Assembly (NCBI GenBank): GCA_013329045.1
Contig: DUKZ01000004.1
Coordinates: 14,171 to 78,170, forward strand
Direction: 5' to 3'
DNA: 64,000 nt
Source of the DNA: Candidatus Woesearchaeota archaeon
GTDB taxonomy: Archaea > Nanobdellota > Nanobdellia > Woesearchaeales > UBA9989
Part shown: piece after piece, positions 13,956 to 19,600 of the stretch
Layout of the letters: every line of letters begins with the position of its first letter
Numbering within the stretch: position 1 is the first letter of the stretch
Notes under the pieces: model-generated
The model's input: the letters and a program-made list of their open reading frames with translations, nothing else
Told to the model about the DNA's origin: nothing
The model's database searches: none
Position numbers and translations under genes: made by a program

Positions 13956-15071
13956 CTATAATCCAACAGCACTCGACAGAGAGAGAATCCTCTCGATCAC
14001 TTCCTTATCTATTGCTGCCTCATGATGATCTAATCTTGGAAAAGGATCAACAACACCATCTAATGACCTTCCGATAGCATCCAGCATCCCAAGCGCGAGC
14101 TCTGGACTATCAACTGCCCTGATACCTTGATCCCCCATTATCTGATGGTACACCTGATATGTCAGTTTTCCTCCAGGGATGAATGCCAAAGCGCGCGTAT
14201 CCATCGTCGGGAAAAAGACATCGATCATTCTCTGATCAGTTCCAAATGCTCGCTGCACCGCATCCTGTATGACTAATTTTGGCAGATATAAACTTGTTGA
14301 GTATGCGCCCTGCCTGCCAAAAACATCAGATGAAGGATCCCTCCCTTCAACATCCAAGCTTCCTCGCCAATCAGCAAAAGCCAAAACCGATACACTGAAA
14401 CCAGCAGCTCTTAGTGTTTGAGGGAACTGGACAGCCATCGTCCCCATAATATTTATTGTTGCCTCAACCTGCCGTTCTTCCAATGGAGTGAGCCGCCATT
14501 GGAACAGTTCCGGTCTGCCACCCACAACCCTGACATCCTTTGAATAGACAGTTGGTTGACCTTCTAATAGTCCACAGCTGGCCGCTGCGACAGTGTTGAT
14601 ATAGATAATATCCGTTGCCCCAATATCATGGAGGCCCTGCTGGATTGCGGCGAATTGATTGCCCTCCACCGTCATCCCTCGATAGTTCTGGAAAAAATGA
14701 TTGGCCCTCTTTGCCTCCTCGACTTTTTCCCGGTAGGCTTCAGTTGTGAAATAACCAAGCGTCAAACCTCTCATATCTCTTGAGAGAATGGTGATACTGC
14801 CAATTGTATCAAGATAAGGAAGGAGTGCAGTTGCAACGGCAAATCCTAGCCCTTGCCCAGAAGCACCTGCGAGAAGAAGATGCCTGCCTGCCAGCCAACC
14901 AAGATTGTATGAAGACGCATGACGCGCTTGTTCCTGCAGATTGCGTTCGAGCAACGATGCTGCTTCACCTGGATATGAAGCGATCTCTTCTTCATTTGGC
15001 CTTGATGGTGCCGGTGCCCCCTCGACAATTTCTAGTCCGGGGAATGGTCTTGTGTAAGGTGAATTTGCCAT
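13956..15071 (-). CDS. Distant FabV/Ter (trans-2-enoyl-CoA/ACP reductase)-like SDR protein
   Basis: LLAGASGQGLG, EERQVEATINIMG, Y-x7-K (YSTSLYLPK), DTRALAFIP..TYQVYHQIMGDQG and RLDHHE parallel FabV motifs; start moved to ATG 15071 because the track start overlaps the tRNA. Confidence 0.6.
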   Translation of the reverse strand: MANSPYTRPFPGLEIVEGAPAPSRPNEEEIASYPGEAASLLERNLQEQARHASSYNLGWLAGRHLLLAGASGQGLGFAVATALLPYLDTIGSITILSRDMRGLTLGYFTTEAYREKVEEAKRANHFFQNYRGMTVEGNQFAAIQQGLHDIGATDIIYINTVAAASCGLLEGQPTVYSKDVRVVGGRPELFQWRLTPLEERQVEATINIMGTMAVQFPQTLRAAGFSVSVLAFADWRGSLDVEGRDPSSDVFGRQGAYSTSLYLPKLVIQDAVQRAFGTDQRMIDVFFPTMDTRALAFIPGGKLTYQVYHQIMGDQGIRAVDSPELALGMLDAIGRSLDGVVDPFPRLDHHEAAIDKEVIERILSLSSAVGL

Positions 15072-15215
15072 AACGCAGAATTGGGGCTCTGACTTATAAT
15101 AATTATTGAGATGAAGACGTGGTGATAAAAGCGGGAAAAGAGATAAACCTGCGAGGTAGACAAAAACAAAGTTTTTGAGCCTCGCATGCCCAGTTATATA
15201 GTAAATATTACTGGA

Positions 15216-15289
15216 TGAGCCTGCGAGGATTTGAACCCCGGTCAATCGGTCCGAAGCCGACCGCACTATCCAAGCTATGCTACAGGCCC
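15216..15289 (-). tRNA. tRNA-Arg(TCG)
   Basis: GGGCCTG/CAGGCTC acceptor stem, GTCGG-CTTCGGA-CCGAT anticodon arm, GTTCAAATC T-loop; CCA not encoded. Confidence 0.95.
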
Positions 15290-15370
15290 ATAAAAGAAAG
15301 TGGAGAGAGGGAGTTTATAAATGTTACAGAAAATGAATCTCTTTTCTTTGGAAATGAAAAAATAATTCAT

Positions 15371-15652
15371 TCACTTCTTTGCGAGCAAAATCTCAATCGT
15401 GCTCACACGAACATCTCTTCCTTCCTTGTTCTTGAAATCTTCAGAATCTATGGTTATGCCCTTGATGACAATCTGGTCCGCAAGGAAGCGCTTGACGGCA
15501 ACCTGGGCAACATCAACTGCCCTGGAAATAAACTTTCCTCTGGCTTTTATAGTTACTTCGTGTGCATTCTTTGTCGTAAACTGCATCACCACACTAGTTA
15601 CATAATTCATAAAAGGCTTATTGCCTATAAATACAGAACTGTCGTCACCCAT
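15371..15652 (-). CDS. albA: DNA/RNA-binding protein Alba
   Basis: VFIGNKPFMNYV, IKARGKFISRAVDVA, VSTIEI. Confidence 0.96.
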   Translation of the reverse strand: MGDDSSVFIGNKPFMNYVTSVVMQFTTKNAHEVTIKARGKFISRAVDVAQVAVKRFLADQIVIKGITIDSEDFKNKEGRDVRVSTIEILLAKK

Positions 15653-15669
15653 AGTTTCCCCCCAATGAT

Positions 15670-15858
15670 TTACGATGAGTGTTTGGTGCGCCTGGTCAAA
15701 AATCCTGCCACGGCATTCCTAATCTTCTTTGAAGTCACGTTCGTATGTTTATTAACAAGTATCTTGTTCTCTTCGTAATTCTTCTTAAAGGCGCCAGGGT
15801 GCTGGGCCATGAGCTCACTCGTGAGCCTCTTTGTCAATACTGTTTTTATCCTTCCCAT
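15670..15858 (-). CDS. rps17e: 30S ribosomal protein S17e
   Basis: MGRIKT..KR, F..NYEENK, SKKIRNAVAGFLTR. Confidence 0.95.
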   Translation of the reverse strand: MGRIKTVLTKRLTSELMAQHPGAFKKNYEENKILVNKHTNVTSKKIRNAVAGFLTRRTKHSS

Positions 15859-16049
15859 ACCTACTCTGGAGGAAGGTTTCTATATAAAGGTTTTGGAAAG
15901 GTCTCGAGAGAGAAGGGAGGTGATGGTGATATTTTGGATAGTAGTATAGTTTTTTGGATATTATCTTTTTTTAATGATCTTTTTTTAGAGGCTAATCACT
16001 CCAGATAGTATAATAGGAGATAATAGAAGATAATAAAATATTAGAACAA

Positions 16050-16331
16050 ATGACCATTCATGATTGCATGAGAAAGGCAACCCTTCTTGGTATTCTTGCT
16101 GCTCTTGGAGCAGTCTATGGACGAGAGCCTGAAGCAGCCCAACCAGAGTTTATGACACCGCCAAGCGAGAGCGCACCTGCCCCTGCCCTCCCGCCCCTCC
16201 GGCCGCAACTGACAGTTCCCCTCCCCCATATCCCAGAGCCAGAACCATCAATCATTAAACCTCGGATGGACCCCTATCAGGCGCCTTCTCACGAACAAGA
16301 AAGGTATTATGGCATCGTTAGATATTGTTGA
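16050..16331 (+). CDS. Small Pro-rich protein with a signal peptide (possibly a truncated remnant)
   Basis: RKATLLGILAALGAVYG followed by a PAPALPP linker; ends 3 bp before the dif/attC-like site. Confidence 0.45.
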   Translation: MTIHDCMRKATLLGILAALGAVYGREPEAAQPEFMTPPSESAPAPALPPLRPQLTVPLPHIPEPEPSIIKPRMDPYQAPSHEQERYYGIVRYC

Positions 16332-16516
16332 ATTTTAAGGATATACCTCTGTTATACGCAATTCAAAGAATATTTTTCTAAAATGAATAATGAAGATAGG
16401 CTTTCTGAAAGGCGAATAAATTTGATTTTTCTTTTATTTATAGAGGGGGATAAAATGGTACTTTCTCCACTCCGTTCCGAAAAATCTATAAAGAAAATAG
16501 TTTAAGAAATGTGATT

Positions 16517-17899
16517 ATGAGTATTAAACCAAGCATCTACACAACAAGAGCTCGTTACCCAGCCCTGCTTTTCCCAACAGCATGGTACTATTATTATCTC
16601 GCTACTGATAAATTCTATAATGACTTCGGTGTCAAGTTTGAAAAAGTTGGAACAATTATCGAAGATAATATGCGTAAAGATATGTATTATCCGATAAACA
16701 CCGCAATTCGTTTCCAAAAGAAATTCATTCAAAAAATTCTTACCTCACCCCATTTTCTTGAAAATCTCAAGGAGCAATTATTTATCGACAGGGCAAAATT
16801 TTTAAAATTTTTACAACAACATGAGACCGTAGATTCATGCACTTTATCAGATAATAAACTGATGTCCTTGTACAAAGAGTATACTCTCCTCTACACTACC
16901 TTCAATTACCCAGCTGTTGTTATTGTTGTGCTTGGAATTGAAGAGCTTGTTCGGGAAGTACAGAAGATTTTACATGACCAATCCGAGTTTGACATTTTCC
17001 TAAAATCGTCTACACTTCCCTATTTATTGCAATACGAACTAGATATACTAGAGGGAAGTATAGAAGATCTAGACACAATTCTCAAAAAATGGTACTGGAT
17101 TCCATTTGATTATTACGGTGCTGATGAGTGGGATAAAAATCATTTTCTATTAGAACTGAAAAAAACAAAAGATGCAGAGAGGACGACCTATTTAAAAAAC
17201 TATCAAACAATTACTTTGAGGAAACAAAAAGAAATTTTAGAAAACAAAAAATTGACCTCGAGTGAAAAGAGGCTTGTCAAAGCATTACCAACACTCATTT
17301 ACATTCAAGATGAAAGAAAAAGAGTAACAAATCTATCATATCCTTTTCTTCACAAGAAGATATTTAATGAATTTGCCAGACGATTGGGTATCCAAAAAGA
17401 GATTGTCTGGCTTATGACTCCAAATGAAATACAAAGAGGATTTGCTGGAGAAAAAAAAGATTTTTCTTATAGAAAAAAAGAGTGCGTACTAGAAGTTTCT
17501 GAAGACAATTTTACTATACATGATAAACTCCCTTCATATATCTCCTATGAGATGGTTGATGAAGACAAAGAATTCATCAAAGGTGTGGTAGCGTCAGGCG
17601 GTAAAACAAGAGGGATGGTTAGAATATGTATCTCTTCAAAAGAGGTTTCTCAAATGCGAAAAGGCGAAATTTTGGTAGCGCCAGCTACTACACCCGATTA
17701 CATTCTCGGTTTTAAAAAAGCCATCGCTGTAATAACTGATGAGGGTGGATTGAGCAGTCATGCTGCCGTTGTATCTCGAGAAATGAACCTACCGTGCGTT
17801 ATAGGAACAAAAATTGCTTCTAAGATTTTGAAAAATGGAGATCTCGTGGAAGTAGACGCGAATAAAGGGATAATTAAAATTCTAAAAAAGAACCAATAA
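16517..17899 (+). CDS. PEP-utilising enzyme mobile (His) domain protein with a large helical N-terminus
   Basis: LVAPATTPDY...AVITDEGGLSSHAAVVSREMNLPCVIGTK...GDLVEVDANKG; no ATP-grasp or TIM-barrel domain recognisable. Confidence 0.88.
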   Translation: MSIKPSIYTTRARYPALLFPTAWYYYYLATDKFYNDFGVKFEKVGTIIEDNMRKDMYYPINTAIRFQKKFIQKILTSPHFLENLKEQLFIDRAKFLKFLQQHETVDSCTLSDNKLMSLYKEYTLLYTTFNYPAVVIVVLGIEELVREVQKILHDQSEFDIFLKSSTLPYLLQYELDILEGSIEDLDTILKKWYWIPFDYYGADEWDKNHFLLELKKTKDAERTTYLKNYQTITLRKQKEILENKKLTSSEKRLVKALPTLIYIQDERKRVTNLSYPFLHKKIFNEFARRLGIQKEIVWLMTPNEIQRGFAGEKKDFSYRKKECVLEVSEDNFTIHDKLPSYISYEMVDEDKEFIKGVVASGGKTRGMVRICISSKEVSQMRKGEILVAPATTPDYILGFKKAIAVITDEGGLSSHAAVVSREMNLPCVIGTKIASKILKNGDLVEVDANKGIIKILKKNQ

Positions 17900-17904
17900 T
17901 TTGT

Positions 17905-17949
17905 TTTGAAAAATGAAAGAGGGGTTAGGGGTGAATTTCATTTTTCAAA
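17905..17949. terminator. Perfect 14-bp stem-loop just after the stop codon
   Basis: TTTGAAAAATGAAA ... TTTCATTTTTCAAA. Confidence 0.45.
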
Positions 17950-18133
17950 GCGAAAAAAATCAAATTTATAAGTATTGAGGAAAGCCTATCATAATGAGTA
18001 AGAACGAAAAATATTTTTTTGAACTCTCTCCGCTTCGCTCCGAGCCACGCTGCACTCTCGCTACACTTCGTTTCGCTCGGGGCGTATAACAAGGGACCCT
18101 AACGTTAAATTTAAGAATATAACTCTATTGAAT

Positions 18134-18928
18134 TTAAGAATATAATTCCCATAAGATCTTTGCCGCAACCTTTGTTGTGAGATTATCAACATCTTTTTCC
18201 GGATTGACTTCGACAATATCAAATGCCCGGACGTTCTTCAACAATTTTATCCTCTGGATAAAGGTGAGGAGTTCCCTTGTCGAAAGCCCCCCCGGTTCTC
18301 GATACCCAGTGCCTGGAGCAAACGCCGGATCAAGCACATCAATATCTATCGATACATACGCATGAGGCCATTCTCTCATGGATTCCGTGATGCCGTTGAT
18401 GACCTCAGAAATTCCGTTTTGCATGATCTGCTTCATTGTCACATGAGGTATCTTTTTTTCCTTAATGAACGCTATCTCGTTTCTGTCCCAGTTGCGCAGG
18501 CCGACAAGGAGGATTCGTTCAGGAGCGATAATGCCTTGGTTAATGAGTCCATTGATGATATCCTCCTGTGATGGAGGGGCAAAATCATTCTCGCAATCGG
18601 GATGAGCATCGAAGACAAGAAGGCCGATCCCGGGGTATTTTTTTGCTGCTGCTTTGACGATCGGGAAAGTGATTGAATGATCACCACCAAGGAAGATGGC
18701 TCTTGATGAGGAGGAGAACGCTTCGGTTGCCTTTTTCATAATTGATTCGTTTGTCTCTGAAAAGTTATTTGGGATAATGTGAGCTTGCTCTACCTCAAAG
18801 ATTGGTTGGAGCTTATCTTCGTTGAGGAAGAGCTCTTTTGTCTGCTCCATGATCATATCCGGCGCTTTTGCTGCGCCATTGCCATGCCCAAGACCGCCCT
18901 GGCCTGATGGGATCTTGATGAGTTTCAT
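18134..18928 (-). CDS. Ureohydrolase (agmatinase/arginase family)
   Basis: GGDHSIT, FDAHPD, SIDIDVLDPAFAPGTG, DIVEVNP; start at ATG 18928. Confidence 0.92.
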   Translation of the reverse strand: MKLIKIPSGQGGLGHGNGAAKAPDMIMEQTKELFLNEDKLQPIFEVEQAHIIPNNFSETNESIMKKATEAFSSSSRAIFLGGDHSITFPIVKAAAKKYPGIGLLVFDAHPDCENDFAPPSQEDIINGLINQGIIAPERILLVGLRNWDRNEIAFIKEKKIPHVTMKQIMQNGISEVINGITESMREWPHAYVSIDIDVLDPAFAPGTGYREPGGLSTRELLTFIQRIKLLKNVRAFDIVEVNPEKDVDNLTTKVAAKILWELYS

Positions 18929-18996
18929 GTCAGAAGCTGAATGAGGAAGGGTATAAAAAGATGGTGGGTACCCCTTGATAGGGGATGGACCGAGTG

Positions 18997-19320
18997 TCAA
19001 GGAGTATAAAAGGTAAAGATATATCCCCTTTGTTGCAATTTTTCAACATCAGCCGCAATAATCCTTTGCGCCTTTTCTGCTTCTATTCCAACAGTGTAGA
19101 AAAGCAGGGGAGTTCCCTGCTCTGAGACTGGCCCTATCTTTTCCACTAAACAATTCGTTGCTTCCTGGATGCCTATTACTGTTGCTGGAAACCTTGGATG
19201 GACCCCGAGCATAGAGATTTCGAAGCGGTGGCGCCCATTTGCGCTAGCATCATGGATGGGCACAACAATCCCGCCCAAAGTGAGTGTACCTATCCTGGTT
19301 CTTTTGGATGTGTCTTCCAT
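18997..19320 (-). CDS. Hypothetical protein
   Basis: 107-aa ORF filling the gap; no motif. Confidence 0.5.
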   Translation of the reverse strand: MEDTSKRTRIGTLTLGGIVVPIHDASANGRHRFEISMLGVHPRFPATVIGIQEATNCLVEKIGPVSEQGTPLLFYTVGIEAEKAQRIIAADVEKLQQRGYIFTFYTP

Positions 19321-19444
19321 AGACTAAGGGAATGGGCCAGCAAATAAAAATATTCTGGACTTAGATTAAGTAACATTTATATATAAGTAATTTTATAACG
19401 TATAATATAAGTAATTTATTGGTGTTATTCATCGGTAAAAGATC

Positions 19445-19600
19445 ATGAGGATCAAGCGAAAACTCTACAAGCGGGGCCCCAGCATGGAGACGACAATCCC
19501 AAAGCCACTGCTCTTTGCCCTCGACGAGAAGAAAAAACACAACATCATCTTTGTCTTTGAAAAAGGCCGATGGTATATCGAGTTTGAGGAGAGGACATGA
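19445..19600 (+). CDS. Small AbrB/SpoVT-like protein (51 aa; below the ORF-track cutoff)
   Basis: MRIKRKLYKRGPSMETTIPKPLLFALDEKKKHNIIFVFEKGRWYIEFEERT; ATGA overlap with the next gene. Confidence 0.7.
   Translation: MRIKRKLYKRGPSMETTIPKPLLFALDEKKKHNIIFVFEKGRWYIEFEERT

Follow-up and report, generated by a model that had tools for sequence, protein, structure and literature searches.

A low-GC gene between inverted boxes

The stretch of DNA analysed here (the window, 64,000 nucleotides) comes from a Candidatus Woesearchaeota archaeon whose assembly (GCA_013329045.1) comprises 1.74 Mb in 55 contigs at 44.8% GC. It corresponds to positions 14171-78170 of contig DUKZ01000004.1 (C17:14171-78170 below). 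The window contains archaeal genes such as those for FtsZ, Alba and archaellum/pilus-type ATPases, together with a tRNA-Arg (15212-15290). Between convergent genes, and adjoined on its right by an agmatinase-like gene (18134-19000, minus strand), lies an insert that carries one gene for a protein with a phosphoenolpyruvate (PEP)-utiliser domain, bracketed by inverted boxes. The GC content of the insert is ~33-34% compared with 45-48% in its flanks and ~46% in the window, and the gene itself has a GC fraction of 0.34 compared with 0.46 for the remaining window. As described in the following sections, this gene is probably an integron-type cassette and a member of a family of cassettes with conserved arms on both sides of the cargo.

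The four inverted box pairs proposed in a preliminary description of this DNA are present. Box 1 (GTTATACGC, 16351-59) and its partner (GCGTATAAC, 18082-90) form a 9/9 inverted match, box 3 (GATAGGCTTTC, 16395-405 and 17980-90) an 11/11 match and box 4 (ATAAATTTGATTTTT, 16416-30 and 17955-69) a 15/15 match, while box 2 (16362-78 and 18006-23) shows one mismatch and one additional T. An alignment of the left end to the reverse-complemented right end places the boxes in the same order and at matching distances; the right arm carries an additional GC-rich segment of ~58 nt, which separates box 2' from box 1'. Local alignment of the left flank with the reverse complement of the right flank gives a score of 41, compared with a mean of 20.7 (sd 2.9, maximum 37) in 500 dinucleotide shuffles (z = 7.1), and it ranks first among the 814 open reading frames (ORFs) of at least 250 aa in the genome. 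The second-ranked score (39, an ORF on C22) was a purine-rich low-complexity match and was rejected.

The cassette consists of a single gene with its own putative promoter and an attC-like site, and it stands alone at a secondary G|TT site within an intergenic tandem repeat. Its parts, in window coordinates, are as follows:

16329-16351, plus strand: copy 1 of the host repeat, ending in the G of G|TT; secondary (pseudo-attI) insertion site ...AAGGATATACCTCTG|
16352-18104, plus strand: the cassette by integron logic, 1,753 bp, from the TT of G|TTATACGC to the G of ...CCCTAACG|TT
16342-16483, plus strand: 5' arm (L arm, nhmmer), with the box 1/R' remainder, boxes 2-4 and then a conserved GAGGGGGATAA... 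segment
16484-16510, plus strand: putative promoter, with a TATA-like stretch TCTATAAAG (~16486-94) 23-31 nt before the ATG at 16517
16511-17899, plus strand: cargo ORF, 462 aa, with a GTG at 16511 and an ATG at 16517
17903-17951, plus strand: hairpin right after the stop codon, stem ~17904-18 / 17936-49, loop GAGGGGTTAGGGGTGAA
17936-18096, minus strand: 3' arm (R arm), with box 4' (17955-69), box 3' (17980-90), box 2' (18006-23), a GC-rich segment (18024-81) and box 1'/R'' (18082-90)
18091-18104, plus strand: collapsed attC-like site AAGGGA|CCCTAACG, 14 nt
18105-18150, plus strand: copies 2 and 3 of the host tandem repeat, overlapping the 3' end of the agmatinase-like gene

Direct repeats at 16329-49, 18105-25 and 18128-48 could be taken for a target-site duplication. 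This reading was ruled out: they are three imperfect copies of a local host tandem repeat with a 23-nt period (the first is 81% like the second), which is otherwise absent from the genome except for one match with four mismatches on C38. An Rfam search of positions 15000-19500 and of five family loci returned only the tRNA and sub-threshold chance matches.

The arm-bearing cassette family and its attC-like site

A motif made of box 3, ten arbitrary nucleotides and box 4 (two-box motif) was used to follow the boxes into other genomes. Allowing up to three mismatches, it was found in 5 of 400 other genomes of the same order, all from different families, while the reversed control gave one match. 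An exact, slightly looser pattern matched 108 stretches in GTDB species genomes. Among the 80 titles listed, 29 name lineages of the candidate phyla radiation (CPR/Patescibacteria), 20 name archaea (Woesearchaeota, Pacearchaeota, Nanoarchaeota, Altiarchaeum, ANME-1, Methanomassiliicoccales and several 'Methanosarcinales') and 31 name other bacteria, including Gammaproteobacteria, Bacteroidota, Bdellovibrionales, Spirochaetales and Omnitrophota. Profiles built from 28 left-type and 46 right-type arms detected 231 arms (110 L and 121 R) in 113 loci plus the window. Both window arms are clear members, with the L arm matching positions 10-150 of its profile (nhmmer, 126 bits, E 8e-37) and the R arm positions 37-192 (146.9 bits, E 3.7e-43).

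Mapping of the arms yielded 74 L...R cassettes (73 distinct) of 0.6-5.4 kb, arranged head to tail in arrays. Their cargo start codons mostly lie 8-45 nt past the L arm, their stop codons directly abut the R arm at its inner end or overlap it, and some cassettes hold two or three ORFs. The expectation that the same ends would enclose other passenger genes was confirmed: the 93 cargo proteins are diverse and include six PEP-synthase/rifamycin-phosphotransferase-like proteins (the window's among them), five SspE/DUF262-like proteins, four HEC-06 proteins and three methyltransferases. Cargo GC averages 0.318 compared with 0.352 in the flanks (r = 0.39), the window showing the greatest contrast. 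In L029, a cassette with a DUF262-like cargo of 603 aa contains an extra 278-aa ORF (L029:9026-9862) on the opposite strand within a 48% GC stretch, which may be an inserted mobile gene. At the junction in L030 and L135 (the same contig, ~6695-6720 in L030) a run of N leaves box 1 and part of box 2 unreadable. The sole exact two-box match in the viral contig collection was L150 (an uncultivated virus genome of 71 kb from IMG/VR, 1403-1437), and a 424-nt array junction had no blastn match in PLSDB plasmids or INPHARED phages.

Inverted repeats would also surround an entire gene in a segment that inverts (phase variation), or if the palindrome were peculiar to this locus and due to chance or regulation, and the loop of the hairpin after the stop codon is indeed flipped in the window copy. 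The orientation of the largest ORF is nevertheless constant, running in sense from L arm to R arm in 73 of 74 cassettes, the same arms surround unrelated genes in more than 100 loci, and the box score itself argues against chance. We regard this alternative as hardly credible.

The non-coding arms are ~85-95% identical across contigs named as CPR, DPANN archaea, other archaea and ordinary bacteria. The presence of the cassettes in both domains is supported by flanking genes, with a bacterial GatB gene (612 bits, cut-off 338) near the L106 array and an archaeal-type ATP-dependent DNA ligase gene beside the L107 array. Contigs titled 'uncultured Methanosarcinales archaeon' carry cassettes at L042, L045, L081, L088, L089 and L100; L042 is the same contig as G304:C4, which is placed in the window's own order, and these 'Methanosarcinales' labels look unreliable.

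Beyond the right-hand arm lies the attC-like site. In most relatives, the sequence outside GCGTATAAC continues with an AAGG spacer, L'' (GATATACGG), a small hairpin (AGCCC-TCGGCTC-GGGCT), TCACCCAAATTT, a second small hairpin, L' (CGTATATCCC), a TAAC or AAAC spacer and G|TT. L'' and L' covary, as in the pairs GGATATGAG/CTCATATCC, GCGTATGCG/CGCATACGC, TAATAACCGG/CGGTTATCA and GATTAAGAG/CTCTTAATC. Over 47 aligned sites, RNAalifold predicted a consensus fold with a 10-pair L stem and two inner hairpins, and 20 of the 21 predicted pairs showed at least one double compensatory change. A cruder, independent test counted 6.93 paired positions out of 10 between L'' and the L' of its own site; shuffling the partners gave 5.18 ± 0.17 and, in 200 shuffles, at most 5.62. 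GTT forms the boundary triplet in 38 of the 47 sites, with 26 different 4-mers directly after it.

The core consensus of attC sites is RYYYAAC for R'' and GTTRRRY for R'. R'' of the family reads G(C)GTATAAC, and one position of each R''/R' 7-mer departs from that consensus. With inverse R''/R' cores, covarying L''/L' and a G|TT boundary, the family sites share three features with attC sites, and the region outside box 1' appears, from its sequence, to have the anatomy of an integron attC site followed by a cassette boundary. The preliminary description had likened the GTT/AAC cores to the R boxes of attC sites, and they correspond to R' and R'' of this hairpin. The folded site is asymmetric, with a 2-nt spacer between R and L boxes on one side and a 4-nt spacer on the other, in addition to the GC-rich bulge of the 3' arm. 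Integron attC sites usually measure ~57-141 nt; the commonest length here is 98 nt (19 of 87 candidates, in a noisy set), and the folded unit with its arms reaches ~300 nt or more. Among 62 distinct right arms with enough flanking sequence, 51 are followed by a full site, seven by a short form (including the window) and four by sites otherwise cut down.

The family cassette is therefore built, in order, from an R' remainder (TTATACGC), a 5' arm with boxes 2-4 and a TATA-like end, one or more cargo ORFs, the stop codon with its hairpin, a 3' arm with boxes 4'-2' and the GC-rich bulge, and an attC-like hairpin of R''-L''-two small hairpins-L'-R'. The window junctions (...CTCTG|TTATACGC and ...CTAACG|TTAAAT) follow this plan, and box 1 at the left (G|TTATACGC) is the portion of R' that travels with the cassette. 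A reading of the boxes as terminal inverted repeats of the mobile unit is not supported; the unit has integron-type edges at G|TT. At its right end the window reads GCGTATAAC AAGGGA|CCCTAAC G|TTAAAT: the entire L''...L' interior, a hairpin of ~75-80 nt in relatives, is absent. Because this L''/L' core has been lost, the window copy is probably fixed in place.

On the left side of the insertion point, AAGGATATACCTCTG resembles the L'-spacer-R' end of family attC-like sites and also the attI-like sites described below. Loot et al. reportedly described in 2024 single cassettes integrated outside integrons at genomic attG sites, in bacteria and by canonical IntI. Like those cases, the window cassette stands alone at a chromosomal G|TT that is not an attI, with no integrase nearby; unlike them, it lies in an archaeal host, its target is a tandem repeat resembling an L'-R' half-site, and its attC core has since collapsed.

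The family 5' arm spans ~170 nt and the 3' arm ~150-200 nt, and together they represent a diverged inverted duplication of ~120 nt. Between L and R arms the boxes are 95-98% identical and the spacers 18-25%, while each spacer type is conserved across cassettes (0.48-0.68). At an array junction, the 3' arm of one cassette is followed by the attC-like site and the 5' arm of the next. As single-stranded DNA, such a junction is predicted to fold as one hairpin of ~300 nt, in which boxes 4:4', 3:3' and 2:2' pair, followed by the GC-rich bulge, R'':R', L'':L' and the two terminal hairpins. The predicted fold of L052:880-1235 has -50 kcal/mol (z = -5.4) and that of L029:9880-10260 has -73.5 kcal/mol (z = -8.8), with 0 of 100 shuffles as good in each case. 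These folds fit the earlier suggestion that the boxes form a bubbled single-stranded stem.

According to the mechanism that we propose, a tyrosine recombinase would act on the folded single strand and swap strands at G|TT in the way known from attC x attI recombination. In an excised circle, or between neighbouring cassettes, the arms would pair and lengthen the attC stem to the bubbled ~300-nt hairpin; in an integrated single cassette the same arms would appear as inverted boxes flanking the gene. A circle released by excision would build this hairpin from its two ends, so that the inverted boxes around the window gene can be understood as its two halves in the integrated state. That the arms act by extending the recombination hairpin is a tentative proposal drawn from the predicted folds, in which we place slightly less belief than doubt.

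The arms probably also serve expression, because the family L arm ends in a TATA-like or -10-like TTTATTTATAAA and the 3' arm starts with a hairpin; this role cannot be separated from the hairpin role. The hairpin occurs with two covarying stem versions and a conserved 17-nt loop, which is canonical in 71 of 86 distinct R arms, inverted in two and without the motif in 13. The inverted copies are the window (17903-17951) and L132:5561-5749, and in the metagenomic runs X3, X15 and X20, 'opposite strands' joints (17903-17952) mark further contigs with the loop turned round. One possibility is that the loop flips through recombination between the stem arms. Another hairpin, in the 5' arm (window 16457-16483; GTTTTC-TCCACTCCGTTCC-GAAAAC type), closely resembles the second inner attC hairpin (TTTTTCT-TCCACTTCGTTCC-AGAAAAA), which hints that arm and attC-like site may share ancestry.

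Recombinases beside the arrays and rival mechanisms

A tyrosine recombinase is encoded in 13 of the 113 loci, as 12 proteins of 266-287 aa and one fragment, and in 11 of the 13 it is divergent from the first cassette. In about 8 of these 11, an attI-like ...CG(C/T)ATA(A/G)AAAC(G/C)A|GTT-like junction (read by eye), with sites of the form TCGYATARAAACSA|GTT-like, lies near the recombinase start codon. The arrays thereby share with integrons an attI-like site beside the recombinase gene, with cassettes transcribed away from it. In L043, L106, L125 and L122, very short ORF-less units of ~190 nt, consisting almost wholly of hairpins rich in CGCTTCGCTC-type sequence, were observed directly after the attI-like site and before the first arm-bearing cassette.

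Eight array-adjacent recombinases were scanned, several of them in genomes titled bacteria. Their best family was NF040815 (195-249 bits), the archaeal XerA model named 'site-specific tyrosine recombinase/integron integrase', and with its cut-off of 220 bits five are above (222.6-248.8) and three below (195-206). For the recombinase at L098:5440-6303, the best solved relative was VchIntIA (2A3V, 177.8 bits), followed by XerA (5HXY and 4A8E, 158.6 and 156 bits). The catalytic motifs align, and IntI4 residues 183-244 are matched by only 19 residues. This segment presumably contains the I2 helix, which reads the extrahelical bases of attC. In two publications, I2 is described as the innovation behind single-strand recombination (PMC4792948, PMC7790495). 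A recombinase without the insert is consistent with an L stem without extrahelical bases. The enzyme of the proposed mechanism would thus be, in several genomes, the short IntI/XerA-like protein that lies divergent beside an attI-like site, and we consider it reasonably likely that these short recombinases act on the cassettes. The earlier proposal of movement in trans by a tyrosine recombinase gains from the recombinases beside arrays elsewhere and from two relatives in the host genome (below), while movement itself was not seen in contigs.

Archaeal integrons and integrase-less attC clusters (CALINs), including those of Nanoarchaeota, are described by Ghaly et al. (2022; PMC9668308), which replaces the earlier impression that nothing of this kind had been reported in DPANN. 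The same paper reports attCs that are 95-100% identical across domains and archaeal IntIs with the IntI-specific domain. The cassettes described here resemble integron cassettes and CALINs in several respects. Their ORFs are single and point the same way, and behind each stands an imperfect palindrome with R''/R' (…AAC / GTT…) and covarying L''/L'. Further shared features are the G|TT boundary, the head-to-tail arrays, a divergent tyrosine recombinase gene with an insertion site beside it, the presence in Nanoarchaeota/DPANN and the near-identical sites in both domains. Unlike integron cassettes, they have conserved 5' and 3' arms that tightly bracket the ORF and would extend the hairpin to ~300 nt, the arm-bearing cassettes look self-expressed, and the consensus fold has no extrahelical bases in the L stem. 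Unlike the archaeal integrons of that report, the neighbouring recombinase is without the IntI-specific domain. Because the integrase domain that defines integrons is missing, the window unit with its family is not a 'complete integron' in the strict sense. The earlier description of a non-autonomous single-gene module of the integron-cassette kind with accessory boxes is supported.

It is rather unlikely, in our judgement, that these are ordinary integron cassettes moved by a canonical IntI, with the arms as portable promoter and terminator modules, the boxes as operators and the short recombinases incidental or secondary. The TATA-like or -10-like end of the L arm just before the cargo starts and the hairpin with which the R arm begins at the stop would fit such modules, and the boxes never covary. 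The near-identical archaeal and bacterial attCs and the IntI-less clusters already in print (PMC9668308) point the same way, and metagenome-assembled genomes (MAGs) are incomplete, so that IntI genes may be missing. On the other side, none of the eight scanned recombinases reaches the cut-off of the IntI model TIGR02249 (265 bits; scores of 165-234, each in two stretches), nor did any of five array-bearing genomes yield a match at that cut-off, to which MAG incompleteness applies. Additionally, 11 short recombinases are placed as intI classically is, divergent and beside a conserved attI-like site, and boxes 2-4 lie upstream of the promoter-like box and outside the transcript. It is also difficult to imagine one DNA-binding regulator at work in bacteria as well as in archaea; folding, by contrast, requires no host factor.

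The preliminary description also likened the cassette to pdif modules. In a reading of this kind, a Xer/dif-type module, pdif-like or exploiting the host's XerA, would recombine as double-stranded DNA at a 28-bp 11-6-11 site at each end. In pdif modules, genes are shuttled by Xer-family recombinases in trans, and CTX phage uses a folded single strand with one strand exchange. The present cassettes resemble these systems in a tyrosine recombinase of the Xer family that would act in trans and in a folded single strand. The match of the associated recombinases to the archaeal XerA model, the GGATATA-type core common to L''/L' and host-site sequences and the short R''-4 nt-R' forms, which resemble simple core sites, speak for a link to Xer. 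Yet the two 11-mers named as XerC- and XerD-like arms are not inverted copies of each other, and instead of two full sites a cassette has a single composite hairpin, which is split at G|TT. No paired 28-bp XerC/D sites surround the gene, no dif serves as target, and the arrays adjoin a dedicated recombinase. The hairpin covariation argues for a folded substrate, and the copies of the host repeat around the insertion point all face the same way, with no inverted arrangement, the repeat being unique in the genome. This explanation is improbable.

Mobile insertion cassettes and gene-carrying miniature inverted-repeat transposable elements (MITEs) are non-autonomous, with inverted ends and a variable passenger, and in these respects the cassettes are alike. 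A transposon of this kind, with terminal inverted repeats and a DDE transposase acting in trans, would explain ~80-nt inverted ends around a passenger gene, the high copy number of these ends in metagenomes and the L029 cassette with its opposite-strand ORF of different GC. We nevertheless consider it very improbable: the window cassette has no target-site duplication, the conserved ends stop at G|TT beside an attC-like hairpin or attI-like site and would each form half of a recombination hairpin, and the arrays have a head-to-tail order of cassettes. What recurs beside the cassettes is a tyrosine recombinase, not a transposase.

Several observations weigh against an integron-type cassette acting through an arm-extended hairpin. 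The L stem of the predicted consensus (47 sites) is a perfect 10-bp helix with no extrahelical bases, and the associated recombinases are without the IntI-specific domain that defines integron integrases; for these two reasons the chemistry may differ from that of integrons. No compensatory change was found in the boxes, because they are nearly invariant: in the 22 of 73 cassettes whose two cores could be recognised, the L arms had 14 deviations and the R arms 8, none of them shared. Without such changes in the boxes, the arm pairing is seen in in-silico folds only. The host assignments of most loci are MAG labels, some of them doubtful. In the host genome, blastn-short and the arm profiles recovered the window cassette and no second arm, and motif scans gave no other attC halves of the family type and no consensus attI. 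No movement was seen in the contigs of the four metagenomic runs described below, neither an empty-site joint (16351-18105) nor a circle junction, a result that carries little weight in either direction. An empty-site comparison had no close relative to draw on: in one metagenome scan, the agmatinase relatives reached 60% identity at best.

Host genome, metagenomes and cargo

The host genome encodes two IntI/XerA-like genes outside the window (C37:34516-35379 and C52:51146-51979). Against TIGR02249 they score 136 and 127 bits, as split matches over four stretches, and neither is above the cut-off. The contig with the C37 gene ends ~160 nt upstream of it with the sequence ...GTATAATAGAT|GTTAAATCCAAT (region C37:34516-35558), and in L029, L110, L128 and L130 the 12-mer GTTAAATCCAAT follows four different attC-like sites precisely at the cassette boundary. 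This suggests that the host may have its own platform on C37, with the array unassembled. A crude scan for attC shapes gave three loci in the host genome, none of this cassette family and one of them the C2 hairpin described below, compared with none in a shuffled genome.

The window stretch is contained in 20 public runs from 11 studies, two of which possibly represent the source sample. Four groundwater or soil runs (X3, X15, X19 and X20) were compared, all as contigs, which drop rare variants. The summed contig depths of the two arms were 527/483 in X3, 422/489 in X15, 50/36 in X19 and 36/41 in X20, far above the depths of the ORF and flanks (~12.5, 5, 5 and 3, respectively), so that the arms are many-copy sequences in those communities. 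One X3 contig covers 15700-17932 unchanged. Joints skipping from 16381 or 16394 to 17955 belong to contigs of other cassettes that share the arms and were rejected as evidence of excision. In L146 the agmatinase and Alba genes lie 3.6 kb apart with other genes between them; relatives at such a level of divergence (60% identity or less) are unsuited to revealing an empty site.

The C-terminal part of the cargo protein (residues ~345-460) is a PEP-utiliser swivel domain. Its N-terminal 345 aa had no match in NCBIfam or the PDB, and a protein language-model atlas gave a weak lead (0.92) to a cluster with PF27448 (Rph_4th) in 21% of its members. The protein has no ATP-grasp domain and, by similarity, is probably a phosphohistidine-swivel protein related to PEP-synthase and rifamycin-phosphotransferase-type enzymes. 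It is 30-37% identical to a protein family that is greatly expanded in this archaeal order (~460-500 aa, C-terminal PEP-utiliser swivel), with 21 matches in the host genome and 27 each in G035 and G041; G038 and G007 carry such proteins as well. At least nine of the host members stand in tandem on C19:574-13193, and others are found on C25, C2, C12, C11, C24, C22, C52 and C18. The flanks of 16 host paralogues showed no cassette ends, apart from an attC-shaped hairpin on C2. This palindrome (C2:4671-4772, TTAGTCAAC ... GTTGACTGA, with a long inner stem) lies directly 3' of a PEP-utiliser paralogue (stop at C2:4805), and the two may represent a second lone cassette with a different attC type.

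In the published literature searched, no description was found of conserved ORF-bracketing arms, of a short insert-less recombinase or of one arm family across CPR, DPANN and bacteria; supplementary data S3 and S4 of PMC9668308 may list members. A full-text search with four arm motifs matched only an 11-mer, in unrelated papers.

For this archaeon, an integron-type cassette accounts for a low-GC island in its chromosome. Across the family, the same arms, ~85-95% identical in such different hosts, indicate a lively pool of genes shared across domains in groundwater and sediment communities, with cargo that includes defence-type and PEP-synthase/rifamycin-phosphotransferase-like genes. Two questions about integrons, the textbook system of gene capture, concern the making of their cassettes and the evolution of the integrase out of Xer-like enzymes. 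The neighbouring recombinases offer a natural test case for the evolution of single-strand recombination, because they resemble IntI but are without the insert thought to enable it. A broader picture is speculative and on balance unlikely: CPR, DPANN and their neighbours may share an integron-like exchange run, on attC-like hairpins, by IntI-related recombinases that either lost the I2 domain or never gained it; these hairpins would be without extrahelical bases, the cassettes would be built on a standard chassis of promoter and terminator arms that lengthens the hairpin, and the placement of the ORFs would be the footprint of cassette building or ORF swapping. A fixed frame of promoter arm, terminator arm and hairpin around varied genes is the trace expected of a cassette-making process and, if this picture is true, the precise placement of ORFs between the arms, within a few bases, would bear on the unsolved origin of integron cassettes.

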